Source: Sulfurimonas sp. (lineage in GTDB: Bacteria > Campylobacterota > Campylobacteria > Campylobacterales > Sulfurimonadaceae). Taken from it: a stretch of 37,544 nt of DNA. Location of the stretch: NCBI RefSeq assembly GCF_032250635.1, contig NZ_JAVVFL010000001.1, positions 1 to 37,544 on the forward strand. Direction: 5' to 3'. Shown here one piece after another: positions 3,149 to 35,996 of this stretch; the stretch's first letter is position 1, and the number at the start of each line of letters is the position of its first letter. The notes beneath the pieces are model-generated. The model was not told the origin of the DNA and did no database searches. It saw nothing but the letters and a program-made list of their open reading frames with translations. The position numbers were made by a program, and so were the translations under genes.

Positions 3149-3155
3149 CAGTTAT

Positions 3156-4391: not shown

Positions 4392-4404
4392 AAGGATAAA
4401 AAAA

Positions 4405-4704
4405 ATGTATACAAAAGAAGAACTATTTTTAGCAATATCGACAGTCATAGACCCTGAGGTCGGTTTTAACCTTGTAGAGATGGGGCTTATTTATGACGCT
4501 TCATGTGATGAAGATGGAAATGCGTATGTAAAGATGACTCTCTCTACAAAAGCGTGCCCTATGCATCAGCTTATCCAGCAGTGGGTAAAAGAGGCTGTGA
4601 AGAAGATGGCAGGGATAAAGAGTGTAGAGATCGATTTAGTTTGGGAGCCAGAGTGGAATATCACTATGGCTGATGAGCATGTAAAAAAAGCTCTAAGCCG
4701 CTAA
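4405..4704 (+). CDS. metal-sulfur cluster assembly factor (DUF59/SufT/PaaD family)
   Basis: VIDPEVGFNLVEMGLIY, MTLSTKACP and LVWEPEW motifs. Confidence 0.9.
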   Translation: MYTKEELFLAISTVIDPEVGFNLVEMGLIYDASCDEDGNAYVKMTLSTKACPMHQLIQQWVKEAVKKMAGIKSVEIDLVWEPEWNITMADEHVKKALSR

Positions 4705-5799
4705 TGTATACTCTTTGATAGCTTCGCAAACTTTTTCAATAGACCTCTTGTAATTCTTCAAGTTGCTTACATAGGTTAAGTCTAGAGGGTTGGCGATACT
4801 ATTTTTTAGTTCAAGCGCGATTTCATGCAGATTGTCCGCACCGATGTTTGCCGCTACACCCGATATATCTAGGAGCAGTTTATCGGCATCTATGCCGTTT
4901 GTCCCATTTATATGCGATTGAAGCGTCTCTGCAGAGTTGGAGTATTTTGATAGAAAATCATTGAGTATTTCAAGGTAGAACTCTTTGTCTCCCCCGCATA
5001 TCTCTAAACCCTTATTCGTGTCAAATTCGGCACTCTCTTGAGATGGTTTAGGAGTTTGTTGTGACTCCTCACCAGTTGTATAAATATATAAAATATCATA
5101 TAGCGCATCCATTTTAAGAGGTTTTTCCAGATGCGCTTCCATACCTACATTTAGCATATTTCTAACATCGTCTGCCGCAGTATCGCCGCTGAGCGCCACA
5201 ATTGGAATATGCACATAGTTTGGATTTTTTCTAATGAGTCTTGTTGCTTGATAGCCGTCTATTATCGGCATATGGGCATCCATGAAAATTACTGCAAAAT
5301 CTCTGTCATTTTCTAAGATATTTAACGCTTCTTGACCATCGTTTGCAATAGTAATATCTATGCCGGAGGTGGACAAGAGCCCGGCTATAACTTTTTGATT
5401 TATTATATTGTCTTCGGCGATGAGTATTCTTGTACCTTTAAAATCGGCAAAGTCATCTTTTGTAATTTTATCATGTGGAAGAAGCTCTCGTTTTTTTCTA
5501 TTTACACGGATTGGAGCAGCAGTCTCAATAGGAGCTGTTTCTATCTCCTGCGCACTGGGTTGTTCCTCTTTATATTCAGGTTGCTCTTCTTTTGTTGTTA
5601 CGGAAGGTTCAGGCTCTTTTTTGTCGCTTTTTGCAACCTCCTTATCCTCCTCCTTGGCTAATGCAGCTGCTTTGTTTTTTGAAATATTTAAGAGAACAAC
5701 TATTATTACAAGAGTTGCTACGACAATTAATCCTATTAGTTCTATATAATATTGACTTATTATTGTTTGCATATTTAGAGCTCTTTTTTTCTTTATCAT
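4693..5799 (-). CDS. membrane-anchored response-regulator receiver protein with C-terminal Hpt-like domain
   Basis: N-terminal TM helix, charged linker, REC motifs (ILIAEDN, FMDAHMP, ALSG, KP) and Hpt-like GLEICGGDKEFYLEIL...GVAANIGA. The true start may be the second Met. Confidence 0.85.
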   Translation of the reverse strand: MIKKKRALNMQTIISQYYIELIGLIVVATLVIIVVLLNISKNKAAALAKEEDKEVAKSDKKEPEPSVTTKEEQPEYKEEQPSAQEIETAPIETAAPIRVNRKKRELLPHDKITKDDFADFKGTRILIAEDNIINQKVIAGLLSTSGIDITIANDGQEALNILENDRDFAVIFMDAHMPIIDGYQATRLIRKNPNYVHIPIVALSGDTAADDVRNMLNVGMEAHLEKPLKMDALYDILYIYTTGEESQQTPKPSQESAEFDTNKGLEICGGDKEFYLEILNDFLSKYSNSAETLQSHINGTNGIDADKLLLDISGVAANIGADNLHEIALELKNSIANPLDLTYVSNLKNYKRSIEKVCEAIKEYTLAA

Positions 5800-5865
5800 A
5801 CTGTAATAAAAATTAAACTTTACAAAGTTAATGTATAATTGTAGTAAAAATTATATAGGTCTTGA

Positions 5866-6795
5866 ATGCAAATTATTCCACATGTTCCGGTTTTATACGC
5901 GCAGGTACTAGAAGCCTTCAGTGATATCGAAAATGGGGTGATTATAGACTGTACGATGGGGTATGGCGGGCACTCTTCGATGATACTTGAAGCAAATCCC
6001 AATATCAAGCTTATTGCAATAGACCAAGACCAGACTGCAATCGATTTTTCAACTTCAAGACTAGAGCCTTATAAAGAGAGAGTCGAGATAAAAAAAGGGC
6101 GCTTCTCCACCGTCATCAAAGAGATTCTTAAAGAGCATGATATTAAAGAAATCAGAGGTGTTTTGGCGGACATTGGAGTCTCATCTTTGCAGCTTGACCA
6201 AAAAGAGAGAGGCTTCTCTTTTTCTAGCGATAACCTTGACATGAGAATGGACACGGATGCGCAACTGAGTGCGGCAGAGGTCGTAAACGAGTACTCTCAA
6301 GCTGATCTTGAGAGAATTTTGCTTGAGTATGGGGAACTTAGAAACTATAAAAAAATAGCCTCTTTTATTGTAAGCAATCGCCCATTCTCATCCGCAAAAG
6401 AGTTGAGCGAAGCCCTGAAACATCTTATGCCAACGGGAAAAAAGATTCACCCGGCAACACTTCTCATGCAGGCTATTCGCATAGAGGTAAACAACGAACT
6501 AGGCGAGCTAAACTCCCTTTTAGACACAATAGAAGAGGCAAAATTTCCGAATGCAAAAATAGCGATTATCTCCTTTCACTCGTTAGAGGACAGAATGGTC
6601 AAAAACAGCTTTGTGCGCTGGAGAGAGAGCTGTATCTGCCCAAAAGAGGCGATGAGATGTACATGCAGCAATGATTACTCATACGGCAAAATTTTAACCA
6701 AAAAACCTATTACGGCAGAAGATGATGAGCTAAAGGCAAATCCTAGAAGCAGAAGCGCAAAACTAAGAGTATTTCAGACGGATAGCAAAGCATGA
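5866..6795 (+). CDS. rsmH: 16S rRNA m4C1402 methyltransferase
   Basis: HVPVL, DCTMGYGGHS, DIGVSSLQLD, LDMRM, ISFHSLEDR and NPRSRSAKLR motifs. Confidence 0.97.
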   Translation: MQIIPHVPVLYAQVLEAFSDIENGVIIDCTMGYGGHSSMILEANPNIKLIAIDQDQTAIDFSTSRLEPYKERVEIKKGRFSTVIKEILKEHDIKEIRGVLADIGVSSLQLDQKERGFSFSSDNLDMRMDTDAQLSAAEVVNEYSQADLERILLEYGELRNYKKIASFIVSNRPFSSAKELSEALKHLMPTGKKIHPATLLMQAIRIEVNNELGELNSLLDTIEEAKFPNAKIAIISFHSLEDRMVKNSFVRWRESCICPKEAMRCTCSNDYSYGKILTKKPITAEDDELKANPRSRSAKLRVFQTDSKA

Positions 6796-7070
6796 GTGAG
6801 AAAACAGAGCTTTTAAATGAAGTAGATTTAGTTCTCAATCCAAAAAAAGGCGTCGATGTAAACCACCTTCTGTATGTTCTGCTTGGCATAACATTTGTCT
6901 CTGTTGTGCTCTTTCCTAAAATATATATTCAGCAGCAGATTTACTTTAAAAGTAGGGATATATCAAAACTAAAAAGCGAGTATGATACGCTAAAAGAGGA
7001 GAACAGGCTTATAAAAGGCTCTGTTGAATCTATTAGATTTAAAAATCAAGTACTTGATACTATATTTTAA
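6792..7070 (+). CDS. FtsL-like cell-division protein
   Basis: Single TM followed by a short coiled coil; overlaps the rsmH stop (ATGA), which is the usual ftsL position. Confidence 0.6.
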   Translation: MSEKTELLNEVDLVLNPKKGVDVNHLLYVLLGITFVSVVLFPKIYIQQQIYFKSRDISKLKSEYDTLKEENRLIKGSVESIRFKNQVLDTIF

Positions 7071-7079
7071 AGAGGTTCG

Positions 7080-10000
7080 ATGATTCGACGTTTTTTAGAG
7101 TTTGCAATAGATAAACCGCTGCTCAACCATATTTTACTCACATTTATTTTTGTTCTCTCCATATTTGCATATGTCAATATCCCAAAAGAGATATTTCCTC
7201 CTATGAACATGGATAAAGTTACCATAGCTGGTGGATACGTCGGGACTTCTGCCGATGTGCTTGACAAGATGGTCGTTAAAACCATAGAGGATGAGCTTCA
7301 AAACATTAGTGAACTTGACATTATAAAAACGACCATTAAAAACGGCTCTTTTTCTATCATAGCGGACATAAAACCGGGTTCTGACAATGCGAATGTTTTA
7401 AATGACGTAAAAGATATAGTAAGCAGTGTAAAAAAAGATCTGCCCTCGGACATGGCAGAGCCGATTGCAAAGATACAGCTGCATAACTTTCCTCTCGCAC
7501 TTGTGGCACTGGCGGGCGATAGACCAAAAGAGGAGCTACTGCAAAGAGCGGAGGAGTTAAAGAGCGAACTGAGCAAACTTAAAGAGCTTAGCGAGATCAC
7601 TATCCGCGGCGATGCCGAAGAAGAGCTTGTCATAAAGATTAACGAGCAAAAAGTTTTGGCGTTTGGTCTGCAGCCTGCTTTGGCGGTAGAAGCGTTAAGA
7701 AACATAAGCTCTATTTTTCCCATAGGAACCATTAAAGACAGAGGTTCTCATCTTTACATCTCAACCTATAACGGAGAGAAAAATAAAGTAGATATTGAGA
7801 GCACAGTCATAAACGTAGGCGGTTCCAGAGTTCTAATAGGCGACATTGCGGATGTCTCTTTTAGACTTAGCGATGAGACGGAGCTTTCACACTACAATGG
7901 TGTGAGAAATATATCCATAAACGTCGCAAAAGCAAAAGAGGGAAATGCGATAGAGCTTGTGAAGAAGGTTAGAGCCCTTTTAAAGGAGAGCCAAAAGCTT
8001 CATCCTGAGCTTCAGTATGAGATATACGCGGATACTTCTGTGTGGATTAAAAATCGTTTAAATACCGTTTTTGCAAATATAACTTTTGGACTTATGCTTG
8101 TCTTTTTGGCGATGCTTATCTTTATAAACCGCGGCATAGCATTTGTTGTTGCCATCGGAATCCCTCTGAGTTTTATGATAGGGCTTATAGCCACCGAGAT
8201 TATGGGAGACAGCTTAAATATGCTCTCACTTTTAGGGGCACTCATAGCTCTTGGGATGCTGGTTGATGAAGCCATAGTCGTTGCCGAGAATATCTACAGG
8301 CACCTAGAGGAGGGGATGGACAGAAGAGAAGCGGCAATAGTCGGAGCGCAGGAGATGTTTCCGGCAGTTTTAACCGCTACTCTTACAACCGTTTTTGCAT
8401 TTTTACCTATGCTTCTGCTTAGCGGCGAGATGGGAATGTTTATAAAAATTATTCCTATCATGATAACCGTGCTGCTCCTCTCATCACTCTTTGAGGCGTT
8501 TTACTTCCTGCCGCTTCACGCGCACGACTTTTTAAAAGTATCGCACAGTGATAGTTCTACGAGAAAAATCTGGAAAAAACTCACCTCTTGGCATAATGCT
8601 GCATTGCATTTTGTTTTTAAAAAGAGATGGATTTCGCTCATAGTTATGGTTGTGACTATCTTATCTTTAACAGCCGTTATGATTAAAAACTCCAAATTTC
8701 AACTCTTCCCTGATTTTGACACCACGCAGGTCTACGTCTATGGAAAGGTAAATGTAAACAACGAGCTTGAAGATACAGAGGCTATTGTAACAGAGCTTGA
8801 GAGAGAGCTTTTGAAAAATATAAAAGGGGATGATATCTCCTCAATCACATCGGTAATCGGTTTTAAACTTGATGCCAAAAATATGGTTGAGACGGGGGAG
8901 CATCTTTTTCATATCTTTATAGATTTGAGTGAACGCGCCGCCGACAATGCTTTTGATGAGTATATTAGCCCATATCTCTCTATTGAGTACGATAAAGATA
9001 TCTTAAAAAGAGAGAGAGACGCAAGAGAGATTGCAAAAGATGTTGAGAGAGTCGTGGAGCCGTTTAGAACTCTTAAAGAGAGAGGAAACATTACCTATGA
9101 AGAGCTTGTCGTAAAGGTTCCGGGAGCCGGTGTTGTTGCCTCAGATGTTGAGATAAGCTTAAGTGCAAACGATGAGCAAAAAACAGTGCAGGGCATAAAA
9201 GAGCTTGAAGACGCACTTAGAGCGATAGAGGGCGTGAGCAATATCTCAAACGATGCAACGCTTGGCGAAAAAGAGCTGAAACTTCGCGTAAACGAGTATG
9301 GACAGCAGCTTGGCTTCAATGAGGAACAGATATCAAAAGAGCTTAGAGCGTACTACCTCAAAGGCGAGTACGGCAAGATGTTTAACGAGAGCGGACTTGT
9401 TCGCATAAAGATAGAGAGCGGCGTAAATGAGCAGATAAACTCCATAGACAGCATAGAGGTCAAGGTTCCCTCCAGCGATACTTTTGTTTTGCTAAAAGAT
9501 GTTTGTGATTTTATAATGACACAAGGATTTGTAGCTCTTCAAAAAGAGAACGGAGCAAGGATAAGAACGGTAGTTGCGTCCATAGATAAGAAGATTATCA
9601 CATCTGCTGAGGTCATGAAAAAACTTGAACCTACATTCTCGAAATTAAATAGTGATGGCTACAAACTTGATATAAAGGGAGAGGAGAAGGAAAACGCAAA
9701 AAACAAAAGAGAGCTGATGCAGTCAGCACTTATAGCAATCTTTTTGATTTTTATAACTCTTGTTTGGCTCTTTGACTCCATTAAAAAATCCCTCATCGTC
9801 ATAAGCACAATACCGCTCGTTCTGCTTGGCGTATTCTTCGGTCACATGGTCATGGGAATAAACCTAACAATGCCCGGAATGATAGGGGTAGTAGGACTCG
9901 CGGGCGTTGTCGTTAATGACGGACTTATTGTAGTGAATTTCATAAAAAATGCAACAAATACAGAAGAGCTTATGAAGCAGGCACAAACAAGATTAAGACC

Positions 10001-10214
10001 GATTTTACTGACATCGCTTACAACGGTTCTTGGACTATCAACACTTATATTTTTTGCTTCAGGGCAAGCCATGATACTCCAACCAATGGCAATATCCCTA
10101 GGTTTTGGAATAGCATGGGCAACTGTTTTAAACCTGATTTATGTACCGCTTCTATATGCAGTAGTTTTTAAAATCAAAGATGCACAGATATCAGAAAAAT
10201 CTAAGGTGGTCTAA
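7080..10214 (+). CDS. RND-family (AcrB/D/F) efflux transporter
   Basis: 1044 aa with two TM clusters; GMLVDEAIVVAENIYR, GVVVNDGL and RLRPILLTSLTT motifs. Confidence 0.95.
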   Translation: MIRRFLEFAIDKPLLNHILLTFIFVLSIFAYVNIPKEIFPPMNMDKVTIAGGYVGTSADVLDKMVVKTIEDELQNISELDIIKTTIKNGSFSIIADIKPGSDNANVLNDVKDIVSSVKKDLPSDMAEPIAKIQLHNFPLALVALAGDRPKEELLQRAEELKSELSKLKELSEITIRGDAEEELVIKINEQKVLAFGLQPALAVEALRNISSIFPIGTIKDRGSHLYISTYNGEKNKVDIESTVINVGGSRVLIGDIADVSFRLSDETELSHYNGVRNISINVAKAKEGNAIELVKKVRALLKESQKLHPELQYEIYADTSVWIKNRLNTVFANITFGLMLVFLAMLIFINRGIAFVVAIGIPLSFMIGLIATEIMGDSLNMLSLLGALIALGMLVDEAIVVAENIYRHLEEGMDRREAAIVGAQEMFPAVLTATLTTVFAFLPMLLLSGEMGMFIKIIPIMITVLLLSSLFEAFYFLPLHAHDFLKVSHSDSSTRKIWKKLTSWHNAALHFVFKKRWISLIVMVVTILSLTAVMIKNSKFQLFPDFDTTQVYVYGKVNVNNELEDTEAIVTELERELLKNIKGDDISSITSVIGFKLDAKNMVETGEHLFHIFIDLSERAADNAFDEYISPYLSIEYDKDILKRERDAREIAKDVERVVEPFRTLKERGNITYEELVVKVPGAGVVASDVEISLSANDEQKTVQGIKELEDALRAIEGVSNISNDATLGEKELKLRVNEYGQQLGFNEEQISKELRAYYLKGEYGKMFNESGLVRIKIESGVNEQINSIDSIEVKVPSSDTFVLLKDVCDFIMTQGFVALQKENGARIRTVVASIDKKIITSAEVMKKLEPTFSKLNSDGYKLDIKGEEKENAKNKRELMQSALIAIFLIFITLVWLFDSIKKSLIVISTIPLVLLGVFFGHMVMGINLTMPGMIGVVGLAGVVVNDGLIVVNFIKNATNTEELMKQAQTRLRPILLTSLTTVLGLSTLIFFASGQAMILQPMAISLGFGIAWATVLNLIYVPLLYAVVFKIKDAQISEKSKVV

Positions 10215-11152: not shown

Positions 11153-14100
11153 CTATTTCCCCTCAAACTTTTTAAGCTCTTTTTCTAGCGTCTCGCTTAC
11201 GCCTTTAAAAATCTCTGTTCTTTTCTCATAAGCAGCGTTGATGCGCTTCTCTTTCTCTGCCTTGCTAAGTTTCTTATCATAAGTGATATGCTCAACCCTA
11301 TTTTTTATATTAGTAAGCTTGCTTGCATATCTTGCCATCAATCTACTAACTTGAACGTATGCTTTTTTCTCATCAGCACTCATGTACTCAGTAATATTTT
11401 TCCCACCATCTATAAAAGCTTTTTTCTTTTTTGCCTCAAAGCTTGCTTTAACTCCGCCAGCCTTTCGCATAAGTTCATAATATTTCTCGCTGTAAGCTGT
11501 GCGCGTTTCAACCTCCTTGCCTCTAAAGCGGTATGTTAAAAACTCTAAAGCATTTCTTGCAAACGGTCTTGCTCCCCAATCTTTTTCATTCCACAACATA
11601 TTTTCCGTAGTTTCCTCTACCATCTTCGCAGTAAGCCCTAGGTAGCCATCAATATAATGCTGCATCAGAATTGGACTTGCACCAGTAAGCTCGCCTGCCT
11701 TTTTATAAAGAAGCGGCGTGAAGTTCATGTATTGGTCACTCTTGTCATCAATGTTTTCCAAGTAACTTGGAACAATGTCTCCACCTGTCCAGTTCTTGTT
11801 TGTCATATCTTCAAGTATAGGTTGAAATAAACCACTTACGTCTCCTATGCTAAACATAGTCTTTATTCCCCAGACAAAATCCGCTGCTGCCTCTTTGCCA
11901 TGCTTTGTGTAAATTCCATCTGCGACAATCTCTGGCATAGTAGCAAACGCAAAACCAATATCGTAAGGGCGAGGTATCTTGATGTGCTGATCACCTATGA
12001 AGAAATGCCAGTACATAAGCTTACTATCGCGAGTGAGTTTTTTATAGCGCTCATCGTCTCTGTTTGCCGACCATAGTGCAAGAGTTATAACAGAGATAAG
12101 CCCTCCAGCTGCGTAGAGTCTTAGTTTGTGCGCTTGCAGCTCTCCTAGTTGATTTTTAAATTTTACTGCATTGGATAATTTCATTTCTCCATTGAGAGAG
12201 AATATGCGTCTTGCAGTTTTATCCATACCGTTGATACCAGCTTTCATAAACGGAACGGTTGCTAAGAAGCCAGTCCACGTTCTGTTGCTTCCTTTAATAG
12301 TAAAGTCTGTACTGACCTCGTTACCCTCAAATGCTGCCTGCATATTACTCTTGCCAGAGTTTGTAGCAAGTAAAAACTCTCCTATTCTAGTTCCGTACTC
12401 AAATGTATCAGCACCATACGCCATTGCGGATAGAAGCTTGTTTATTACCTCAAACCCTCTATTTACCTCTAGCATACCCATAGCATCCACATCTCCGCCT
12501 AGAGTAGTTCTTCTTGTTCCATAGCCGCCGCCGCTTGCCATAAAGTTTTTATAGACATCTGTTTTCATGACAAAATGGTACATGCCGCGTACAGATGTCA
12601 CAACCGGAATAAACTTGTTCTTAGAGAGAACAGAAGCACTTACTGTGTCTCTTACAAAGTTTGTGCCGTAAAATAGAGGATTGTTTGTAATGTTCCAAGT
12701 CATTACATTTTTAGCACTCATCAAGTATTGAACAAGCTCGTTATAGTTTGCAGATCCAAAAGATGTAAGACTATCTACAAGAGCAGCATCATGAACTTCA
12801 AAGTAAATCTTTTTGCCGTTGATGATTACAGTCTCTATATACCCTGTTTGAGAAGTAGGCTTATGCCCATGCGTCCAAAACTCTAAAGCGGATGGATTGT
12901 CAATCAAGTTCTGCTCTATCTCATTTACATCTATAATGATGTCGGCATTGATATCTCCGCTAAGTATCATTCCGTCTTTTGCAACAGTGATTCCAAGTTG
13001 CGCCATAAGTTGTGCCACTTTTTTCGCTTGCTGCGCTATGTCAGATTTTACAAGTTTATTTTCTGCGCTTACTTTTGTTGCAAACACTCCACCCATATCG
13101 CTATCATCTAGCATTTTGAAAAATACCGATTTCCCACGGGAAATTAAAGCTTGTTTGATGTTGCTCTCGATTCCACCAATGATATTCTCCATGATGTTAC
13201 CTAAAGAGTGTGTGCCTCCGGTAAGTCTTTGACCTATCTTTGCCGGAGGAACTGCTCCGTTTTGCACGCTCTCTGTAACTCTATGAAAAGGTACATAGTT
13301 TTTGTTCATCTCTTGAAAATTCGCTTTTTGCTCAGGAGTGATTAGGTTCATGCCAACATAAAAGTCAAGCATCGCATCGTTAAACTCTTGATACTCATTG
13401 AAGATTGTCTCAAATTCAGGATACTTCTGCGCGAGTAAGAGTCCAGCGTCTATCTCTTGCTCTGTTATGAGGTTCTCTCTTCCTTGCCCTTTAAGCTCCG
13501 AAGCTCTCATCGCGACAAGATAATCAGATAGAAGTCTCACTCGCTCCTCAGATACTTTAGTTGCAGGAGCAAAAATATCGTTAAGAGCTTTGCCACTATA
13601 AGTGATATCTCCGTTAGCTTTAACGCTAGGTACGCCAAAGTGCATAGCTGTGTGCATCAAAGAGCTTGCGTGTTCTGCTAGTTGAAGTATCTTATAAGGA
13701 CTTTCAATCGCATCTGTTGCAACATCGCCACGGATTGCCGCTTCTATGCGCTTAATGCTATGAACTTTATCTATTGCCGCTTGTCTGATGTCCTTACTTA
13801 TCTCCGCTTGACTTCTCTGTATCTTCTTTGCAGTAGAATTAAGCTCTCCTCCTTGCTTGCTTCTTAGTGTTGCAGCGGCTCCTTGATAGTAAAACTGGTG
13901 CATCCCTATTTGTAGCATCTCCATTTTTGCTTGGAGGTTTTTATCTTTTGCTAAACGCGCTTCAAAATCTTTTACCATATTTGGCGCGACTAGAGTAAGT
14001 GTATTGTAGTTTGTAAGCCACAAACGAACGAACTCAGCAAAACCCTCGTTTATGACTTTTTTAGGGTCTGTGGTGTAGCTAAGCGCTTTTACTTCCTCTT

Positions 14101-17100
14101 TATTTTTTAGGATGATACTTCTAAAGAAACTATCTTTTGCATCCTTGCTTTTGTTATTGTGAAAGAAGTCTAAATAGTGAGCCATCTCATGCGCCATTAT
14201 TTCAACATCGCTATAGTTTTTAAGACGAATTGAGCTGTCTTTTCTTTTATATATGCCGAGGGCGCTTTTACCTTTTATCTTACCGTCATAAAGTCTATTG
14301 CCTATTATATCGCTTACATAGATACGTAAACTATCAGCATTGATTGGCTTATCTGCCGCAGGGAGTTTTACTTCTCTTTTGTTAAGCGTGATCGTATCAC
14401 TCAAAGGGCGAGAAGGAATACCGCTCACTGAATAGTTTGGAACATAGTTGATGCCGGCTTCATCATACCCATTCGCACGCGCATAAAAGTTTGTCTCTTC
14501 TATCTGCTTCTGCTCTTTAGGCGTAGGCTTTTTAGAGTAAGAGATAGTCTCCGGCTCTCTGTCTGCCAAGTAACTCTCTATCTCCGCTGCGCTCTTGCCC
14601 TCGCTCTTTAAAATCTGCTCAAGCGTGTAGGCTGTTTTGATTTTATCTATGCTTACATTTTTCCCATCATTCGTAAACTCATCAGTAATAAACTTCGTCT
14701 CTGCCTCGTGTGATGCTTTTTGCTCTTTGCGCTCATTTGCCTTAGCTTCTATCTCGGCAATTTCTACTTCTATACCTTGAATAGTATTTTCATACTTTGC
14801 TTTTCTCTCAACTAAGCCTTGAATATGCTTATCTAACTTCTCTTTTTTCTCTGCTTCATCCTTGATGCCCTCATACTTTGGAAAATTTTGAGGCATAAGG
14901 TTTTCATCTGCCCCTTTTATTGCATCGCTGTAGTTTTTTATTGAGCCTTGTTTTGTTTTTATATCTGCATCAAGCTTAGTGATGATATTTTTGAGATTGT
15001 TCGCGTCTACAACAGCATTTTCTATGACTCTCTGTTTTCTAAGTCTCTCTCTCTCAAATGGGTCACGCTCTAAATCTATAACCGCTTGATACGGGTCGGT
15101 AGTGTTTGAGTTGTCTATTATGGAAACACCATCCACCACAACTAAGTCCTCATTTTCAGAGAACTTATACATATCGTTAAACCCTCTTTTTTTCATAACA
15201 ATGTCATAACTTCTTTTGTCAAAAGTTCCAAGTTGAAAAAATTGGTGTACGCGCACTTCTGTATTTTCATTCCCTTGACGCACGCCACGGTTAGAGCGCT
15301 GCTCTATCTCATCGGGGCGGAAAGGAATATCAAGCTGGTAGATATCAGTTGTTTTTCTGTTTAGGTCAACACCAACACCAAGCTTGCTTGTATTTCCAAT
15401 AATTACTTTTATGTCGCCATTGTTATACATGTCCATAATTTTATTTAGCATATCAGGTTTTATGGAACTCTTTGAGACTTTGCCTGTCGTAGGATTTACA
15501 AAAGCGGCACCATTCACAAAGACAACCTCTTTCTCATCAAACAAGCCAGTTGCTAAGATTTTCTCTCGTGTCTCAGCGTGCGTGGATGTAACACTCCCGT
15601 CGCTGTTTTTTACAGAGAGTCTATCCAAGAAGATGATCTGCCCACTATTGCTATTTTCTTTGTATTGATTTGTAATCAACTCTATCGTTTTCAGTATCTT
15701 ATTATTTTCAGATGTTGCGATATCGTTGTCTATAACATCAAAAAGGTCATCGGGCGTAAATTGAGATTTACCTTTTGTTCCAACATCATAAAGTCTTAAA
15801 TCAATACTAGCACTTCTCCCCGCTCCCATAGCAACAAGAGCTATCTCAACTTCGCTAGAGTCTAGCAACCCGCTTTTTATCTTCTTTGCATCTTCCATCG
15901 CAGCTAAAATTCTATGCTGCACGTCTTGAAAAATCTTCTCTCCGGCACTGGAGAGCTTAAGATAGTGCTGCACATCTACCTGCTTTGGTCGTGGAAGCTC
16001 CGGCATATCTTTAAAGCCTTTGTAATCCACAAATCTATCTAGTATCTTGCCCATCCAATCAAGGTTTTTCATGCTTGCTAAGGCTTCTCTTTTTACTATC
16101 TTGCCTGCTGAGTCTGTAGTTTCAAGCTCCTCTATATCGTAAAAAGTATCAACAAAATCTCTAGAAGAGACAATACCATACTCGTAAAGGATGCTCTCGT
16201 CTAAATGCTGTAAAAGTGTGTAAAGCTCCAGTGGCTTATTTGGCGTTGGCGTACCTGTAAGCAAGATGACATTGTTGCCGTTATTATTTTGAGAAACATA
16301 TTTGCTTTTAAATCTAAAGTCATAGCTTCGCATACTTCCAAGGGTCGCGCTATGAGGTTCAGCGCCCTCGAGGATATCCTTTGCTGTCAGTGCTTTTCCA
16401 TTTTTATCGGAGTAGCTCATCACTACACTTGCCCCAAGTCCACCTTTGATATCTTTACCGCCAAGCCCGATATTTTTATAGTATTGCACTTCATCTGCTA
16501 TCAACCCATCAAAGCCCATCTTTGCAAAATCAAACTCAACATCACTACCGTATGCTTGTTTAAGTCCATTTTTTAAAGCTCTTTTTTTAGCCTCTGCCGA
16601 TACGCCTTTTTTCTTTGATTTTGTATCGCCTGCCTCAACTTCCTCTATGGCTTGTATCTGCTCAACCAAATCATCTACATACTCACTCATTACATCACTA
16701 GGTAGCCCAAACTTTTGGAACATTGTATCGCCAATTATTGTGAAGTCGTAGCGATTGTTTGCAAGATCAAAAGCCATCTGCTCTTTTTCTTCACGGCTTA
16801 GTTGTGTCCACTCTTTTGCATTTCCTTTATTTACACCGCTTTTTACTTTTGGAAATTCAAACACTGCGGCATGTGGATAAAGTTCTTTAACACTGTTTTC
16901 CCACTGAGCAATTGTGTTTACGGGAACAACAAAGAGAGGCTTTTTCATAACGCCTTGACCTATAAGGTTCATAACTGCAACTATTGCCGTGATTGTCTTG
17001 CCTCCTCCGGGTGCAAAAGCTAAAACACCTTTTTTATTAAACACCAATTTTTCAGCGCCCTGTAGTTGATGTGATTGCATAGCGAAGGATTTGTCTCTAA

Positions 17101-20100
17101 ATGTTTTAGGAAGCTCACGAAGTAGTACGCCTGTCATCTCAGGACGGACATAAAAGTTTGAGTATCTGTTGTACTCGTCTGTAAGTATTTCAGCTAAGCC
17201 TTGTTTTTCTATATACTGCATTACTTGTGGAACTAAAACCTCGCTCAAAAGCTTTGTAGCTTCCATGGTCCTTTGGATGTTCTCTTGATCGCTCTCGTCT
17301 TTGCCTTTTGGAGCAAGAGCTTTTTTGTTTAGGTATCTATTGTAAAGCTCTGCTTTCATACCGTCGCCATCAAACACATCGGAGCGAACAAATAGCTCAC
17401 CGCTTTTCTCTGTGCTTATTGCATCGCGAACAGCGTTAGGTAACCAGCTCTCTCCACCCTTAACTGTGATATTTTTAAAAGGTATCTGCTCAGGAACTAT
17501 TGCTTTTAGCTTTATGTACTGCTCGTTGTATTCGTCTATACTAAGTCCATGGTATTTGCGTAGCCCCTCAACAGAATCAAGTTTTGCGTAAACATTGCCG
17601 CTGTAGTACATAAAGTCAAGCTGTATCTCGTTTACTCCGCTGCGAACATAGCTACGATTTTTTACCAACTCTTGCATATCCTCTTTGCTTAAGTAGTCAT
17701 ACTCTTTTGAGGTATCTATGGCTGTGTCGCCAGTGGAATAAAAAAGTGCACGCTCTATTAGTGGAGAGTTTGCATCTACTTCAAGTACGCCACTATCTTT
17801 AAATCTCGTCTGCTCTCCATAGATAGGCGCAGGAGTAAAGTCTTTATCAAAGTAGCTCATAGATTCTTTAAGAGCTATGTCGGAGCGGTGCTCTTTCATA
17901 AACTTTTTAAGTGCTAAGTCGTTATGAGGAGATTTCTCAAACCGTTGCTTGTAGTTTTGTATCTCCGCAAGTGCTGTGTTTATCATTGTTTTGTCTTCAA
18001 GACGAAGACCATCTTCTGTAAGCATTTTTATCTTTTCAAGCAAGAGCGCCTTTTGTGCGTTATCGCCTTTTAGAACTTCTCCAAACATAGCTTTTTTAGA
18101 AGTGTCGCTAAATGAAAGCTCCTGCGCGTAGTAAACCATTTTCCCATCTGCAAACTCGCTGTGAGGTTTAGCTTCGCTTACCAACTTCATCGGGATCTTG
18201 TTTTGTGCTGCATACTCTGTAGCTTCTTCTACGTTTTTAAAACTATGCTGCTCGTCTTGTGTCTTCTTAGCTATTTTATACGGCTCATAACTAATCTTGA
18301 TGTTTTCAAACTTTGGCTCGCCGCGAACTATCCAGCCCTCTTTGCCCATCTTTGTTTTATCGTTTGCTACAACCACTTCATCGCCTAGCAAATTCTCAGG
18401 ATGCTGCAATAGGTATTCGTTCATAGCAAAACCGTCTTTGTTACCAATGTTTACAAACTGATTATTCACATCTTCTTGACGACTCTTTACTCCCTCGGGT
18501 CGTTTTTGGATGAAGATAATATCTATCATGGTATCGGTATGAGCATTTTTAGCTTGTGACTTCTCGGGAAGTCTAAATGCACCTATGATATCGCCTCTGT
18601 CCATTAAATACTTTCTAAGATGTCTCGCTGTAGTTGTTCCATCCATTGTTCCGGTACTTGTCATAAACGCGATAACACCGTTCTCTTTTACTTTATCCAT
18701 AGAGTGAGCAAAGTAAAAGTTATGTATCGCTTTAAACGCAGGTTTGATTGTCATAGCATGCTCACGCATAAGCATCTCTGTACTCGCAAAAGGAACATTA
18801 GAAACTATAAGGTCGTAATTCTTGCCCTCAAAGGTCTCATAAGTGTCTGCAAAGAAGTTTTTGATTTGAGGATAAAGTCTTTTTGTGATTTCAATGTTTG
18901 TCGTATCTATATCCACAACATCCCATGAAGCATTTGGCATAAACCCAACAAAGTTGCCACTGCCAACTGCCGGCTCTAAAATTTTATCCATAGGAACGTC
19001 TGCATCTGCTAAGGCTTTGTAGATTGATTGTACTGTAGCGTAGTTTGTGTAGTGCTGATTTACTGAGTTTTCGTTTGCCTCTCCAAGTCCACCCTCTCCG
19101 GTATAGTGGCGAAGTATCTCTCGGTCTGCTTCTGTAATCTCTTCTAGTGGTTTTTTTATGATTTCGAGCGTAGCGTCATTGAACTTTTTGCGTTGACCTT
19201 TTGTAAGCTCAACTGGAGTTCTCCCCTCTAGTGAATAGCTCTCAGTGCTATTTGGTTCATCAGATCTTGGTAATACTCTGTTTGCATCAGTTGTCTGTTG
19301 CTTAGGTTGTTTATTTCCGCCATCGGTTTTGTATCCGTCCACTCCGCCATATCCATTGGATACTTCATCTTGAGTGCTTCCATTCGTACCAAGTCCGTCA
19401 GGTCGTCTATCGCCCTCTGATACTGACTTGTCACTTCCTTGATTTGTTTTTGTGTCAAGTGTGTTTTGTTTTGAAGTTGGTACTCCAGCTGTATTATTTG
19501 TTCGCTCAACAGTTTGACTGCCTGCGTCATTTCCTCTGTTCTCATTTCCTCTATTCTCCTCTCTCTCAACTATATCCATTATATCACGAACAAACTCAGA
19601 TGAAGTTAGTTTGCTATTTTTTATCCATCTGTTGCTGCCGTCTTTTTTCGTTGCTTTGTTGGTAGTTCTGTAAAGCTGCCCATCAGTAAGGCGCATATCA
19701 TCGCCCATAGTGTACGCATCGTGTATGCCATCTTCTATGAGATCATAACCAAGCGAGACATAAACACCAATATCACTATTTGGCTTATAGAGTTTAAACG
19801 AAACACTGCCACCAGCAGGAGCAAGGTTGTTGCTAACTCCCATATATGAAAGAGGTTTGCCTTTTTTATCTACTGCAACCTCCCATCCACCAAGAGCTTT
19901 TTGCAACTGCTGCACATATTTCGCTACATCTTTTTGAAGCTTCTTTGATACCTCACGACTAGGAATTTCATTCATAATCCCCTTAGTTGTATAAACCTTT
20001 GTCGTGTCAAAGATTATTTTAGCATCGCTGCTTCCGGATACACCTCTATCGTTAGCTCCCTTGCTTTCTCCTGCGTATGTCCCTTTGCTAGTAGGCTCTT

Positions 20101-22918
20101 GTAGAGTGGTATCGCTTTTTGTCTCAGTTGGTAAAGTGCCTGCGTCCGTTTTTGTGTTTGCTGCGGGGTCTCTGTTGTATTTTCCATTTTCCTCTTCCTC
20201 TAAGTATGTGTCTAAAAGTCTTGCAAGAGCTGATGCTTCTTGCTCTTCAAGCTCGTTTAAATTCCAGTTAGCCTGTAGCTCGTTAAATCTTTTGATATCC
20301 TCTGCTAAGTGCGGACTGCCGGCTCTATGCAGCTGCTCCATAACTCTGTCGGAGAGTTCGCTATGCTTGCCATTTTTAGCATTAGTGATAGCGGTAATAA
20401 CATCTTCATATTTTACCACACTATTGACTATACCCTTCGCCCACTCAGGAACGATATACTCTGTGCTTGCAGTTGTATCAAAAAGAGCGTTTCTCGTACC
20501 CTCAAAAGCAAGTGAGTTTTGAGTGCCTTGCTTCGTTTTTGTGGCAGTAGACAAAATGCCGTACGCGCGCGCATACTCATCTTGTACAAAATTGTCATAC
20601 TGTGATGCTGCATATTCAGGAGAATTATCAAGCACTCCCAAGTCTGCTTTGAGTTTAGCAAGCAACTCTGTGTCTATCTCCCCTTTTCCAAGTCTTGTGA
20701 TATCACTCTTGGTAAGTAGAAAATCTGCTCTGTAGTTTCGCTCATACTGCGCCTTGTCATAAGTATTTTTATCAGTACCGCCATGCCCATCAAGTTCTCT
20801 TCCTGCACCAGCCTGTACAAGGTTGTTTACACTTGCCGCATCTTTGGCATAAATATCTTTGCGCATATCAAGAAGCGATTTATAACGAGGGTGATTTTGT
20901 AGCTCTGTAAATTCTGTATCTTGCGCCTCTTTTGTCTCCACGACATTGATGTCGTTAACATCCGCTTTCGCCTCCGGCTCAGGCTCTCCGATAACAGGCT
21001 TTTCGATTACGGGTGCGGGAGTTGATGTTGCTGTTTCATTCACACTTGCACTCAAATCCTCAAGTTCAAACTTCTCATCTTGCGTAAGTTCATCATCCGT
21101 TTTTTCTTGCAACTCTTGAAGTCGTGCCGTATCTACCGTTGGTGCATCCGCAAACCCTTTAGGCTTCAACTCCTCATCCACTTGTAAAGGATTACTTGAC
21201 AACTCGGCTCTAAGCTCATTCCAGCCTGTATCTATTGCGTTGAGTCCGTTATTGTCACTCACGTTTAAGCCATTGGCTTTAGCATCTGCTACTATCTGCT
21301 CTTGCATCTCAACACTATCAACAGCTTCAACAGGCACGACTTGCTCAGGATGATTGATGACTAAATTTTGAAACTCATCTTGAATAGTTTTTACTTTACC
21401 ACGCAGATCGTTTGAAAAGTTTATATACCCTGCATCGTCAACGGTAGTAACTAGCCCACTGCCCAATACCTGCTTATTATAAGCATCTTGCACATACGCC
21501 TCACGCGCTTTTTCTTGCTTCGCCTGCGATAGAGTGTTAAATATTTCTGTTCCTGTAGCGGTTGCGCCACTTATTCCGGCACCGGCACCAGAGCCTGCCA
21601 CAAATCCGGCAAGAGCATCGTCCGCGTACTCTGCTGGACTGCTTAGTCCTTTTTCCGTACCTACCTCTTCGCCAAACTTCTCTATAGGATTTTGTAGAGA
21701 TTCAGTAGTTCCCTCTACTACAAATCCTTTTTGCATTTGTTTACCTACGGTAGTTATTGCGTCTTTGAGCGAACCATCAAGCGCATCTTTTCCTACACTC
21801 TTGACAACATCTTCCGTTGTTGCCTTAAGACCAAGCCTATCAAGGATTATACTTCCCATGGTTGTTGGTGCAGTCATAAGGTAATCGTTTGCCGTTGGCT
21901 CTTTGCGGTTGTTATTTTCTGCTCTGTGCTCTGCACTCTCTTGTTGTCTCGCTGCATAGTAAAGAGGCATTGCCGCTACCATCTCTGCCATATCAGGAGC
22001 GCTTACCACACCCTCGCTTCCAATATAGTTGCCTAGCTCTTGCCAAGCATCTACATCAAACACTCCGCCGCTGCTAAATCCTTTTTTTACCTCTTCCCAG
22101 CTATGTGTAGGCTTTTGAACTATGGATCCATCGTGTAGTTCCATCTTGTTTTTTTCATACACGAAATCATTAAGCTTATCACTTGCATTTTTAAACCAAT
22201 CCGCGCGCTTTTTATTTTGTGCATCCAGCGCCTCAGTGGTTATGCCGAGGTACTCCATGGGTGTCTTTATATTTCCAAGTAGATTGTATGTGCCTTGAAT
22301 CGCATTTGCAGTAAGCTCGTTCACGCGGTTTACGACTCTTTTGCCAAGCTCCCATTCGCTAGCTTCTGGATTGACATAGTCTTGATTTTCGCCCATAGAG
22401 ATAGTTCTTTTGTTTGCCTCTATGGTTTGGGCATCTTGCTCAGCAGGCGAAATCATTCTTGCAGGTGTGTCGTTAAATATTTCAACAGCAGTTCGCATTG
22501 CAGGCTTAAACTCTCTCGTAGCGGTTACATCATCAGTTTGCACGATATCTGATGTGAGAGCATCTATCATAAAAGGCTTTTCAGCAGTAGCGGCTTTTGT
22601 CTGTATCGGGAGAGAACCGTCTCTGTTTGGTGCAACTGCATTATGTAGGGCAGGGTCGGTTACATCAGTATCCTCTTTGTATACAGGAGCAAACGCGCGC
22701 TCTATTGCAGATACTCCTTTGTCAAGGGTGTCGCTAACATCAAAGTCAAGCTGTGCATTTACAAAGTTCTCTTTAATGCGTGTCTGCTCTTGAGCATCAA
22801 GCGCTAAAAACTCAGCATCTGCCATTTCTGTATCGAAGTAGTTTGTAGTAATTGTCTGTTTTTTGGAGAGGTCAAGCGATTGAAAATCTTTATCAGAGAA
22901 GATGTCTATCTGTTTCAA
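11153..22918 (-). CDS. giant polyvalent virion/ejection protein: N6-adenine MTase + SNF2-like helicase (DarB-like) + HExxH zincin-like motif + LPD38-like C-terminus
   Basis: 3921 aa. MTase motifs ILEPAVGSGNF (~18950-18980) and IVSNVPF (~18790); helicase motifs APGGGKT (~17000), DEVQ (~16490), LTGTP and EQRSNRGVRQGN; HEMAH (~14180); KIPRPYDIG and NKNWTGGDIVP near the end; Gly/Ala-rich hydrophobic segment near the N-terminus. Confidence 0.88.
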   Translation of the reverse strand: MKQIDIFSDKDFQSLDLSKKQTITTNYFDTEMADAEFLALDAQEQTRIKENFVNAQLDFDVSDTLDKGVSAIERAFAPVYKEDTDVTDPALHNAVAPNRDGSLPIQTKAATAEKPFMIDALTSDIVQTDDVTATREFKPAMRTAVEIFNDTPARMISPAEQDAQTIEANKRTISMGENQDYVNPEASEWELGKRVVNRVNELTANAIQGTYNLLGNIKTPMEYLGITTEALDAQNKKRADWFKNASDKLNDFVYEKNKMELHDGSIVQKPTHSWEEVKKGFSSGGVFDVDAWQELGNYIGSEGVVSAPDMAEMVAAMPLYYAARQQESAEHRAENNNRKEPTANDYLMTAPTTMGSIILDRLGLKATTEDVVKSVGKDALDGSLKDAITTVGKQMQKGFVVEGTTESLQNPIEKFGEEVGTEKGLSSPAEYADDALAGFVAGSGAGAGISGATATGTEIFNTLSQAKQEKAREAYVQDAYNKQVLGSGLVTTVDDAGYINFSNDLRGKVKTIQDEFQNLVINHPEQVVPVEAVDSVEMQEQIVADAKANGLNVSDNNGLNAIDTGWNELRAELSSNPLQVDEELKPKGFADAPTVDTARLQELQEKTDDELTQDEKFELEDLSASVNETATSTPAPVIEKPVIGEPEPEAKADVNDINVVETKEAQDTEFTELQNHPRYKSLLDMRKDIYAKDAASVNNLVQAGAGRELDGHGGTDKNTYDKAQYERNYRADFLLTKSDITRLGKGEIDTELLAKLKADLGVLDNSPEYAASQYDNFVQDEYARAYGILSTATKTKQGTQNSLAFEGTRNALFDTTASTEYIVPEWAKGIVNSVVKYEDVITAITNAKNGKHSELSDRVMEQLHRAGSPHLAEDIKRFNELQANWNLNELEEQEASALARLLDTYLEEEENGKYNRDPAANTKTDAGTLPTETKSDTTLQEPTSKGTYAGESKGANDRGVSGSSDAKIIFDTTKVYTTKGIMNEIPSREVSKKLQKDVAKYVQQLQKALGGWEVAVDKKGKPLSYMGVSNNLAPAGGSVSFKLYKPNSDIGVYVSLGYDLIEDGIHDAYTMGDDMRLTDGQLYRTTNKATKKDGSNRWIKNSKLTSSEFVRDIMDIVEREENRGNENRGNDAGSQTVERTNNTAGVPTSKQNTLDTKTNQGSDKSVSEGDRRPDGLGTNGSTQDEVSNGYGGVDGYKTDGGNKQPKQQTTDANRVLPRSDEPNSTESYSLEGRTPVELTKGQRKKFNDATLEIIKKPLEEITEADREILRHYTGEGGLGEANENSVNQHYTNYATVQSIYKALADADVPMDKILEPAVGSGNFVGFMPNASWDVVDIDTTNIEITKRLYPQIKNFFADTYETFEGKNYDLIVSNVPFASTEMLMREHAMTIKPAFKAIHNFYFAHSMDKVKENGVIAFMTSTGTMDGTTTARHLRKYLMDRGDIIGAFRLPEKSQAKNAHTDTMIDIIFIQKRPEGVKSRQEDVNNQFVNIGNKDGFAMNEYLLQHPENLLGDEVVVANDKTKMGKEGWIVRGEPKFENIKISYEPYKIAKKTQDEQHSFKNVEEATEYAAQNKIPMKLVSEAKPHSEFADGKMVYYAQELSFSDTSKKAMFGEVLKGDNAQKALLLEKIKMLTEDGLRLEDKTMINTALAEIQNYKQRFEKSPHNDLALKKFMKEHRSDIALKESMSYFDKDFTPAPIYGEQTRFKDSGVLEVDANSPLIERALFYSTGDTAIDTSKEYDYLSKEDMQELVKNRSYVRSGVNEIQLDFMYYSGNVYAKLDSVEGLRKYHGLSIDEYNEQYIKLKAIVPEQIPFKNITVKGGESWLPNAVRDAISTEKSGELFVRSDVFDGDGMKAELYNRYLNKKALAPKGKDESDQENIQRTMEATKLLSEVLVPQVMQYIEKQGLAEILTDEYNRYSNFYVRPEMTGVLLRELPKTFRDKSFAMQSHQLQGAEKLVFNKKGVLAFAPGGGKTITAIVAVMNLIGQGVMKKPLFVVPVNTIAQWENSVKELYPHAAVFEFPKVKSGVNKGNAKEWTQLSREEKEQMAFDLANNRYDFTIIGDTMFQKFGLPSDVMSEYVDDLVEQIQAIEEVEAGDTKSKKKGVSAEAKKRALKNGLKQAYGSDVEFDFAKMGFDGLIADEVQYYKNIGLGGKDIKGGLGASVVMSYSDKNGKALTAKDILEGAEPHSATLGSMRSYDFRFKSKYVSQNNNGNNVILLTGTPTPNKPLELYTLLQHLDESILYEYGIVSSRDFVDTFYDIEELETTDSAGKIVKREALASMKNLDWMGKILDRFVDYKGFKDMPELPRPKQVDVQHYLKLSSAGEKIFQDVQHRILAAMEDAKKIKSGLLDSSEVEIALVAMGAGRSASIDLRLYDVGTKGKSQFTPDDLFDVIDNDIATSENNKILKTIELITNQYKENSNSGQIIFLDRLSVKNSDGSVTSTHAETREKILATGLFDEKEVVFVNGAAFVNPTTGKVSKSSIKPDMLNKIMDMYNNGDIKVIIGNTSKLGVGVDLNRKTTDIYQLDIPFRPDEIEQRSNRGVRQGNENTEVRVHQFFQLGTFDKRSYDIVMKKRGFNDMYKFSENEDLVVVDGVSIIDNSNTTDPYQAVIDLERDPFERERLRKQRVIENAVVDANNLKNIITKLDADIKTKQGSIKNYSDAIKGADENLMPQNFPKYEGIKDEAEKKEKLDKHIQGLVERKAKYENTIQGIEVEIAEIEAKANERKEQKASHEAETKFITDEFTNDGKNVSIDKIKTAYTLEQILKSEGKSAAEIESYLADREPETISYSKKPTPKEQKQIEETNFYARANGYDEAGINYVPNYSVSGIPSRPLSDTITLNKREVKLPAADKPINADSLRIYVSDIIGNRLYDGKIKGKSALGIYKRKDSSIRLKNYSDVEIMAHEMAHYLDFFHNNKSKDAKDSFFRSIILKNKEEVKALSYTTDPKKVINEGFAEFVRLWLTNYNTLTLVAPNMVKDFEARLAKDKNLQAKMEMLQIGMHQFYYQGAAATLRSKQGGELNSTAKKIQRSQAEISKDIRQAAIDKVHSIKRIEAAIRGDVATDAIESPYKILQLAEHASSLMHTAMHFGVPSVKANGDITYSGKALNDIFAPATKVSEERVRLLSDYLVAMRASELKGQGRENLITEQEIDAGLLLAQKYPEFETIFNEYQEFNDAMLDFYVGMNLITPEQKANFQEMNKNYVPFHRVTESVQNGAVPPAKIGQRLTGGTHSLGNIMENIIGGIESNIKQALISRGKSVFFKMLDDSDMGGVFATKVSAENKLVKSDIAQQAKKVAQLMAQLGITVAKDGMILSGDINADIIIDVNEIEQNLIDNPSALEFWTHGHKPTSQTGYIETVIINGKKIYFEVHDAALVDSLTSFGSANYNELVQYLMSAKNVMTWNITNNPLFYGTNFVRDTVSASVLSKNKFIPVVTSVRGMYHFVMKTDVYKNFMASGGGYGTRRTTLGGDVDAMGMLEVNRGFEVINKLLSAMAYGADTFEYGTRIGEFLLATNSGKSNMQAAFEGNEVSTDFTIKGSNRTWTGFLATVPFMKAGINGMDKTARRIFSLNGEMKLSNAVKFKNQLGELQAHKLRLYAAGGLISVITLALWSANRDDERYKKLTRDSKLMYWHFFIGDQHIKIPRPYDIGFAFATMPEIVADGIYTKHGKEAAADFVWGIKTMFSIGDVSGLFQPILEDMTNKNWTGGDIVPSYLENIDDKSDQYMNFTPLLYKKAGELTGASPILMQHYIDGYLGLTAKMVEETTENMLWNEKDWGARPFARNALEFLTYRFRGKEVETRTAYSEKYYELMRKAGGVKASFEAKKKKAFIDGGKNITEYMSADEKKAYVQVSRLMARYASKLTNIKNRVEHITYDKKLSKAEKEKRINAAYEKRTEIFKGVSETLEKELKKFEGK
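19228..19545 (-). CDS. putative nested (+1 frame) 105-aa helical protein inside the giant gene
   Basis: AGGAG 10 nt before ATG 19545; MRTEEMTQAVKLLSEQIIQLEYQLQ...YYQDLMNQIALRAIH; co-extensive with a low-complexity linker of the main frame. Confidence 0.6.
   Translation of the reverse strand: MRTEEMTQAVKLLSEQIIQLEYQLQNKTHLTQKQIKEVTSQYQRAIDDLTDLVRMEALKMKYPMDMAEWTDTKPMAEINNLSNRQLMQTEYYQDLMNQIALRAIH
20014..20187 (-). CDS. putative nested (+1 frame) 57-aa protein inside the giant gene
   Basis: Not in the ORF track. GAGGAAGAGGAAA-ATG start; MENTTETPQQTQKRTQALYQLRQKAIPLYKSLLAKGHTQEKARELTIEVYPEAAMLK*. Confidence 0.55.
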   Translation of the reverse strand: MENTTETPQQTQKRTQALYQLRQKAIPLYKSLLAKGHTQEKARELTIEVYPEAAMLK

Positions 22919-33955: not shown

Positions 33956-34375
33956 CTACACAAAGAAGCTGTTGCGCTTCTCTACAAACCACATGGCAAA
34001 TGCCGCGAACTCTGTTGATGCTATTGGCATTATGGTTCCGTTTGTAAAGTGAATATTTGTGCTTAAGACACCCATATCAAACGCGGCTTTTACCTGCAGC
34101 AATCCGTCCGCATCATCTTTCATAAAAGGAACCTGATACTCAACTCCGCCTAGTGTGTATAGCTCGCCGTTGGTTTTATGGTCGGCTATTGCCTTTGCTG
34201 TTTGTGCATCAGCAAGTTCATTCTGCTGTGCAGCAATCGCCAACTCTACCGCCGCCGCTGCAACTACGCTCTTGTTGCTCAAAAGCACATAGTTATCTCC
34301 GCTCATCACAACCGGCTCTCCAAGTTGCTCACTTAAAATGTCCACTAAAGGACGTGCTGTAATCTCATCTTGCAT
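33956..34375 (-). CDS. putative tail-fibre assembly/accessory protein (DUF4376-like)
   Basis: 139 aa; AGGAG RBS lies inside the RT 3' end; YTLGGVEYQV...TNIHFTNGT...EFAAFAMWFVEKRNSFF. Confidence 0.5.
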   Translation of the reverse strand: MQDEITARPLVDILSEQLGEPVVMSGDNYVLLSNKSVVAAAAVELAIAAQQNELADAQTAKAIADHKTNGELYTLGGVEYQVPFMKDDADGLLQVKAAFDMGVLSTNIHFTNGTIMPIASTEFAAFAMWFVEKRNSFFV

Positions 34376-35358: not shown

Positions 35359-35522
35359 AACTCTTACCTTTTTTATGTTTTTGCTGTCTTCTAGTTTCGA
35401 TGTTTCACTACTCTTAGTTTTACAGACCCATTACTTTGTTTGCATTACGCAGGACAGATAAGCTGACTATCTTTAGTCGCACTACACAACCCTTAAGTTG
35501 CATAAGTGTTATAAGTAAATAC

Positions 35523-35638
35523 TCACAAGCGAAACGAGAACCAATATTCCAATTCGAATTCCAAACATAGTTGTTCCAATTCGAGGCGCGCGAACCGGCA
35601 TTGACGCCATTCGTGCGATTCCCGCCCAATATCACCGC
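35523..35638 (-). repeat. DGR template repeat (TR)
   Basis: 116 bp with nine AAY codons and 24 adenines; aligns without gaps to 36016-36131. Confidence 0.96.
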
Positions 35639-35642
35639 TTTC

Positions 35643-35978: not shown

Positions 35979-35996
35979 TCCGTTCGCTTCCGCTCA

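Follow-up and report, generated by a model that had tools for sequence, protein, structure and literature searches.

The prophage and its giant gene

The window, that is, the whole stretch of 37,544 nucleotides analyzed here, contains host genes at positions 1-10214 and a prophage on the minus strand. The gene content of the prophage includes a P22-like portal, a capsid, a lysozyme, a holin and a diversity-generating retroelement. The retroelement (34345-37454, minus strand) comprises a reverse transcriptase (35358-34345), bAvd (35978-35643) and an Mtd-like target (37454-35997). It contains a pair of 116-nt repeats, at 35523-35638 and 36016-36131, and 10 of the 11 differences between the copies fall on an A of the first copy, read on the minus strand.

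The largest gene of the prophage (11153-22918, minus strand) encodes a polyvalent protein of 3921 amino acids, referred to here as the giant. An N6-adenine methylase domain was located at aa 1341-1473, ResIII/SNF2/helicase C domains at aa 1947-2549 and LPD38 at aa 3622-3786. A methylase-helicase dyad has been described in polyvalent proteins, and the combination of adenine methylase, SNF2 helicase and LPD38 is of the phage type (Iyer et al. 2017, PMC5512222). In the giant, the adenine methylase is followed by the SF2/SNF2 helicase, and portal and capsid genes adjoin the gene. Judged from its sequence, the giant is a DarB-like polyvalent protein as described in the main text of PMC5512222. DarB of phage P1 is packaged into the head by an N-terminal signal (PMC9024508) and protects the DNA from restriction (PMC5512222, PMC9024508). 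The likeness to P1 DarB and to the proteins of PMC5512222 lies in the methylase, the SNF2 helicase, LPD38 and the portal and capsid neighbourhood, and by analogy we infer that the giant may likewise be packaged in the head and shield DNA from restriction.

Segments of 55 residues with less than 16% hydrophobic residues occur in the giant only over two open reading frames in the +1 frame, ORF57 and ORF105. ORF57 (20014-20187, minus strand; ATG at 20187, TAA ending at 20014) encodes 57 amino acids. The position, peptide and +1 frame given in the preliminary description of this DNA were all confirmed; the strand is minus and the ORF lies within the giant gene (22918-11153). The second +1 ORF that it mentioned is also present. 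This frame, ORF105 (19228-19545, minus strand), starts at 19545 or 19530, which gives 100-105 amino acids, lies over the linker before the methylase, is conserved and displays the motif YP..M..W.D..P.

The ATG of ORF57 is preceded by GAGGAAGAGGAAA, a purine-rich Shine-Dalgarno (SD) region (20188-20200, minus strand) with GAGG 9 and 3 nt before the start codon, and a TAG is located in the +1 frame 4 sense codons upstream of the ATG. The predicted peptide is basic (9 K+R, 6 D+E). The main-frame linker over ORF57 (20015-20188, minus strand; aa ~911-968) is predicted to be disordered and contains 10% hydrophobic residues, as compared to 30% across the giant. It is preceded by an acidic helical hairpin (20195-20323, minus strand; aa 866-908; 10 D+E, 3 K+R), a candidate partner of the ORF57 product. 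On the other side, between the two nested genes, lies a folded alpha/beta domain, here called the PAGG domain (19565-20014, minus strand; aa 969-1118), which is well conserved and for which no family match was obtained. Its fold likeness to PsiB and to type III chaperone folds was weak (Z 6.4 and 5.7, below significance).

Expectation by chance within the window

ORF57 and ORF105, each taken alone on the window, are within the range of chance. Synonymous shuffling of the giant, repeated 5000 times, left the ORF57 frame open in 69.8% of the shuffles; it was both open and provided with an ATG and an SD in 30.4%, and at least two SD-led +1 ORFs of at least 57 amino acids were obtained in 17.4%. 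The frame is often open since only two sites in the linker can give a +1 stop. More generally, the open frame, the ATG and the purine-rich ribosome-binding site result largely from the main-frame Glu-Glu-Asn-Gly and the hydrophobe-poor sequence, and the GAGG of the window is due to Glu codons in the main frame. Among 24 hydrophobe-poor windows in host genes, 3 have an open +1 frame.

Under a Markov model that had been trained on 979 ORFs of the host, the +1 frame of ORF57 scored -8.5 bits relative to the main frame, against a mean of -79.8 bits (SD 22.6) for 3435 host windows; of the 23 such windows whose +1 frame is open, 2 scored as high. In amino-acid composition, the ORF57 peptide scored between -0.13 and +0.04 bits per residue, too close to a +1 shadow to be set apart from it. 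The linker scored -0.26 to -0.39 bits per residue, nearer to host linkers than to a passive shadow frame, a result that fits a captured gene and overprinting alike.

Conservation of ORF57 in related giants

Ten other giants span the ORF57 region at 42-84% identity. In the viral loci examined (L031-L059, the best 29 of 80), the flanking domains are present in 5, and ORF57 was found in all 5, although co-occurrence of this kind is expected from physical linkage alone. Each peptide was counted once, as L031 and L032 share one ORF57 peptide, L114 is identical to L036 and the peptide of L127 equals that of L125; with L125 added as a further carrier, six distinct sequences were obtained, including the window. 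These are 54-62 amino acids long, with a variable length of the N-terminal third, and share the invariant residues M1, Y29, K30, G36, Y50 and P51. All six are basic (K+R 9-16, D+E 4-10).

The preliminary description had asked whether homologues keep the frame open, and an ORF with ATG, SD and stop was found at the same place in the +1 frame of five other distinct giants. An SD 4-mer precedes ORF57 in 6 of 6 homologues, as compared to 98 of 1190 +1-frame ATGs in the same giants; the GAGG of the window is weaker than the AGGA or GGAG of the five relatives. The number of sense codons between the last +1 stop and the ATG is 4, 1, 8, 0, 1 and 8 in the six sequences, and an entry by frameshift is nearly excluded because the +1 frame stops just before the ATG. 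Further upstream, TGATATAAT was found approximately 218 nt from ORF57 in 3 of the 6, while the window has TGGTAAAAT at 231 nt and the motif is absent from 2 of the 6. Asp-Ile-Ile codons generate it in 33-46% of the shuffles for the three carriers and in 5% of those for the window.

ORF57 was seen only together with the hairpin and the PAGG domain, and at no other position in the loci examined. The full-length relatives L033 and P0011 are without all three: both the flanking domains and ORF57 are absent from L033, and the linker of P0011 cannot encode the ORF57 profile in the +1 frame by back-translation (z -0.3). L112 and L126 match upstream pieces only and have no ORF57. Nine further database giants (P0002-P0010), examined as proteins by back-translation, have linkers compatible with the profile in +1 (z 7.9-12.3, 60 shuffles each), scores that partly reflect shared ancestry and, for two of these proteins, a match to sequences behind the profile. 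P0010 has kept the hairpin and a compatible linker, and the preceding domain is missing. A six-frame search of 353 genomes of the family gave 8 matches at E<=0.01, the strong ones being the window and L127 only; the six others (E 6e-4 to 6e-3) were left out of the counts.

Selection on the two reading frames

In the main-frame alignment of the six sequences, identity over the linker was 0.39 in the +1 frame and 0.29 in the main frame. Only this contrast between the frames counts, because the shuffle null removes shared ancestry and the main frame exceeded the null too. All six ORF57 frames were open together in 0 of 1000 shuffles, single frames being open at rates of 0.09-0.70. Identity at the main-frame codon positions 1, 2 and 3 over the linker was 0.50, 0.54 and 0.60, with an excess at the third position (one-sided Wilcoxon p 0.015, 31 vs 18 columns), whereas the third position was the least conserved in three flanking controls (0.68/0.77/0.42, 0.64/0.71/0.39 and 0.85/0.91/0.49).

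The ratio pN/pS over the ORF57 region was 0.62 in the +1 frame and 1.24 in the main frame, with synonymous sites near saturation (pS ~0.7). The relation was reversed in the next domain, used as the control, with 0.46 in the main frame and 1.16 in +1. In the +1 frame, pN was below pS in 15 of 15 pairs, counts that are non-independent since the six sequences are related. In close relatives, 9 substitutions were counted by hand over ORF57 codons 20-57 in contigs of three public runs, two of them at a depth below 5; 6 of these are silent in +1 and 8 change the main-frame residue. Another 11 substitutions (codons 5-17) were set aside, as they lie among gaps. For ORF105 the pattern is the same but stronger (+1 pN/pS 0.41; p 3e-8).

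The main frame of the linker is constrained as well, being open in at most 1.7% of +1-synonymous shuffles. T at the nested third position was used in 0 of 60 stop-forming contexts and in 18 of 111 others, as compared to 45% in host genes, and this scarcity keeps the linker hydrophilic.

Since relatives keep ORF57 and it is under selection as a protein, we conclude that it is very probably a real, unannotated gene. The interpretation of the preliminary description is therefore borne out by the conserved frame, start, SD and peptide and by selection in +1 at the level of codon positions and pN/pS, although its reasoning was only partly upheld. It had argued that two +1 ORFs led by ribosome-binding sites in linkers indicate nested genes; the conclusion stands by way of the relatives, whereas frame, ATG and ribosome-binding site are weak arguments in shuffles. 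The codon shuffling that it suggested did produce such ORFs often by chance; homologues nonetheless keep the frame, start, SD and peptide.

Predicted structure and database searches

AlphaFold modelling based on the six ORF57 sequences gave a pLDDT of 85.8 with helices at residues 8-34, 39-49 and 51-56, that is, a predicted layout of a long helix, a Gly turn, a helix, Pro and a short helix. This confidence is mild support, since short helical peptides often score well. The earlier guess of a helix-Gly-turn-helix protein agrees with these helices and with the invariant Y29 and G36. In the model of giant aa 805-1123, helices of low confidence are followed by a linker predicted to be disordered (pLDDT 24-40 over model residues 101-160) and then by a folded alpha/beta domain.

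Searches of Pfam, PHROGs, NCBIfam and PDB sequences gave nothing above the cut-off, a direct word-based search with ORF57 gave no candidate, and Foldseek gave no match of the ORF57 model in the PDB at E<=0.001. The ESM Atlas contained no usable match to ORF57; for P0014, the best match there (0.80) was taken as a lead only. No match to ORF57 or to giant aa 805-1123 was found in GenBank phages, and none to aa 805-1123 in plasmids. For the flanking region, the best BFVD hit had an E of 0.0048 and the best VIA hit a Z of 7.7, below the noise line of the tool. A likeness of ORF57 to the lambda GamS fold (best VIA Z 5.5, rmsd 3.3, 48 aligned) was rejected as a common helical arrangement. DUF429 (PF04250) was likewise rejected, with 16.9 bits against a curated cut-off of 23 over 44 of 214 positions, and with the Glu of the EVYP look-alike missing in 4 of 8 members.

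When the ORF57 profile was searched against 1.84 billion representatives, 8 matches were obtained. Among these, P0012 (63 amino acids) and P0015 (48 amino acids) are members of the ORF57 family that were gene-called as small proteins on short contigs; these two and P0014 were compared at the level of the protein. P0013, P0017 and P0019 (multi-stretch matches in longer proteins) and the uncertain P0016 and P0018 were not counted.

ORF105, TnpV-like nested ORFs and a fusion protein

Homologues of ORF105 were found at 23-24% identity in two giants of shorter length (L002:2637-2978 and L003:2622-2978), which belong to a different family of the same order. The motif TGATATAAT, which is extended -10-like, is located upstream of ORF105 (19578-19586, minus strand), and TGnTA(T/A)AAT was found at a like place before the linker ORF in all 6 giants examined. 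The slot held by ORF105 in the window is occupied in the relatives L035 and L036 by a TnpV-like ORF, ORF105 being a different sequence family. Nested TnpV-like ORFs precede the methylase in L035, L036, L049, L038 and others, and are present unannotated in 21 GenBank phage records. Their match to Pfam TnpV (PF14198) is weak (3 of 8, best E 0.0017).

ORF57 has the nested frame and the kind of host gene in common with the TnpV-like genes, the hairpins (aromatic/aliphatic..L..G....EA....Y) are weakly similar, and the two are fused in P0014. Unlike them, ORF57 is shorter and basic, with YK and YP motifs, is encoded in the preceding linker and gave no match to a TnpV model: none of 5 members matched PF14198 at E<=1, and neither did the ORF of L125 or P0014. 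Comparison of ORF57 with the TnpV-like family (A4) gave a weak hhalign match over the C-terminal hairpin (E 0.0025, probability 12%). When the A4 profile was run against 10,914 segments, the ORF57s of L031, L036 and L034 ranked 1st, 3rd and 5th outside A4 (E 0.019, 1.1 and 2.4); the other 3 of the 6, including that of the window, were not listed at E<=20. In P0014/P0020 (159 amino acids), an ORF57 domain (E 4e-23) is fused to a TnpV-like domain (E 1e-7), which implies that both nested products can function within a single chain. The locus was not found in viral contigs.

Several other +1 ORFs were observed. In L031, a third such ORF (13077-13325) lies in a linker that is inserted after ORF57 and before the PAGG domain; it has 82 amino acids from the first ATG, and a later GAGG-led ATG may be the start. 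Further coding-like +1 ORFs were seen in different linkers of the more distant giants L038, L039 and L041 (~aa 550-639), L050 (aa 346-414) and L054 (aa 625-682), some of them SD-led. Among the matches listed, L005, L006, L007, L021 and L022, distant methylase-helicase genes from other families that we take to be ICE-type genes, have open +1 frames of 163-374 amino acids before the methylase. In phage PBC5 (AF448724; L135:7600-9200), the giant is split: orf33 enters the TnpV-like frame and then stops, and the linker frame, which opens just before, leads on to the methylase. A mutation, or a frameshift within the record, may have caused this split, which explains the match of a TnpV-like ORF to PHROG 938.

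Comparison with known nested genes

The nesting of Rz1 in Rz of phage lambda, out of frame on the same strand, is a classical case. Other same-strand, out-of-frame nested genes are comS in srfA and gndA in gnd (PMC11230408). As in these three, the genes described here are small, fully embedded out of frame, conserved and provided with their own SD and start codon. They differ in lying exactly over the only two hydrophobe-poor linkers of the giant and in their number, with two or three in a host gene; they also change together with the adjacent domains and are able to fuse. The main text of PMC5512222 does not mention nested genes, and the literature searched, mostly non-subscription and at the level of titles and abstracts, contained no mention of nested genes in DarB-like genes. 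On sequence grounds, ORF57 represents a real, undescribed family of small genes and a variant of a known nested arrangement; the family itself is new, as are the occurrence of a pair of nested genes within a single giant and the fusion of ORF57 to a TnpV-like domain.

A putative role for ORF57

We suggest, with a probability of roughly 45%, that the product of ORF57 is a separately translated helper of the giant; once ORF57 is taken as a real gene, the chance of such a role is about even. Translation would start internally at the SD of ORF57 on the mRNA of the giant, and synthesis of the helper would thereby be tied to that of the giant. The product would be a small, basic, helical protein that binds a co-inherited module of the giant, the first candidate being the acidic hairpin (aa 866-908) just upstream, of complementary charge to the basic ORF57 peptide. 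It might act as a chaperone or as a safety catch or inhibitor, and, in the producing cell, hold the giant in a folded or quiescent state until packaging. The proposal is based on the co-inheritance, the charge complementarity, the fusion protein and an in-frame precedent: RpnS, an intragenic antitoxin, and Cas11d are intragenic products that act on the protein of their host gene (PMC10327210). The likeness lies in a small product that is encoded within a larger gene and would target the large protein, but RpnS and Cas11d are in-frame C-terminal pieces, whereas ORF57 is out of frame and has no sequence in common with the giant.

Almost as probable as the helper role is that ORF57 is a real gene whose product acts away from the giant, by binding DNA or a host or phage protein, with the linker as mere spare coding space; counter-defence, lysogeny control and a function as head-packaged cargo are conceivable at the same, rather tentative level. 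All evidence for a gene applies equally here, the peptide is basic in all six homologues, and the upstream TGATATAAT or TGGTAAAAT could permit separate timing; the neighbouring nested gene has an extended -10 motif in 6 of 6 giants. Yet the motif upstream of ORF57 is absent from 2 of 6 and is codon-derived in 33-46% of shuffles of the three carriers, and the gene was found at no other position in the loci examined.

The remaining explanations deny that ORF57 is a separately expressed gene and are all improbable. The frame could be a by-product of a hydrophilic linker that is stop-poor in +1 and whose Glu and Asn-Gly codons give SD and ATG, as the shuffles (open in 70%, with ATG and SD in 30%), the open +1 frame of 3 among 24 host windows poor in hydrophobic residues and the lack of a family match above cut-off would allow; this is improbable given the joint opening of six frames in 0 of 1000 shuffles, the reversed codon-position conservation, pN below pS in 15 of 15 pairs, the six invariant residues and the fusion protein P0014. 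Slightly less probable still is that ORF57 is a decaying, unexpressed relic of a small gene, engulfed by the fusion of its neighbours. Moderate conservation (39%), the variable N-terminal third and the weak SD of the window would fit such a relic, but +1 changes are mostly silent in close relatives and the frame is intact in six divergent sequences. We regard as least probable that programmed +1 frameshifting yields a shortened giant with ORF57 as its tail: the upstream ORF of PBC5 runs into the TnpV-like frame, so that such a junction can be open, but RefSeq has one DarB-like feature over the PBC5 match and the split may be a record error or mutation. Against this explanation also stand the 0-8 sense codons before the ATG, which leave no room in L035, and the conserved Met and SD.

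If the helper role is extended to the other linkers, giant injected phage proteins may be assembled from cassettes, each with a domain and a linker that encodes the partner of that domain. Each domain would have a cognate +1 chaperone or inhibitor, descended from one hairpin family and gained, lost, duplicated and fused together with the domains. This reading is speculative and rather unlikely; if true, the low-complexity linkers of polyvalent proteins would constitute an unannotated gene layer.

Implications

A 12-kb gene can hold extra genes cheaply, as the main frame needs an open, hydrophilic linker and the +1 frame carries the folded sequence. Databases lack a small phage protein family because ORFs of this type are discarded by gene finders. 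When a DarB-like gene is knocked out, two or three genes disappear together, and a change of the start codon that is silent or near-silent in the linker makes the nested gene testable. If the nested products are cognate partners of the giant, they would give direct access to the means by which injected proteins that are toxic or prone to aggregate are kept harmless until packaging.
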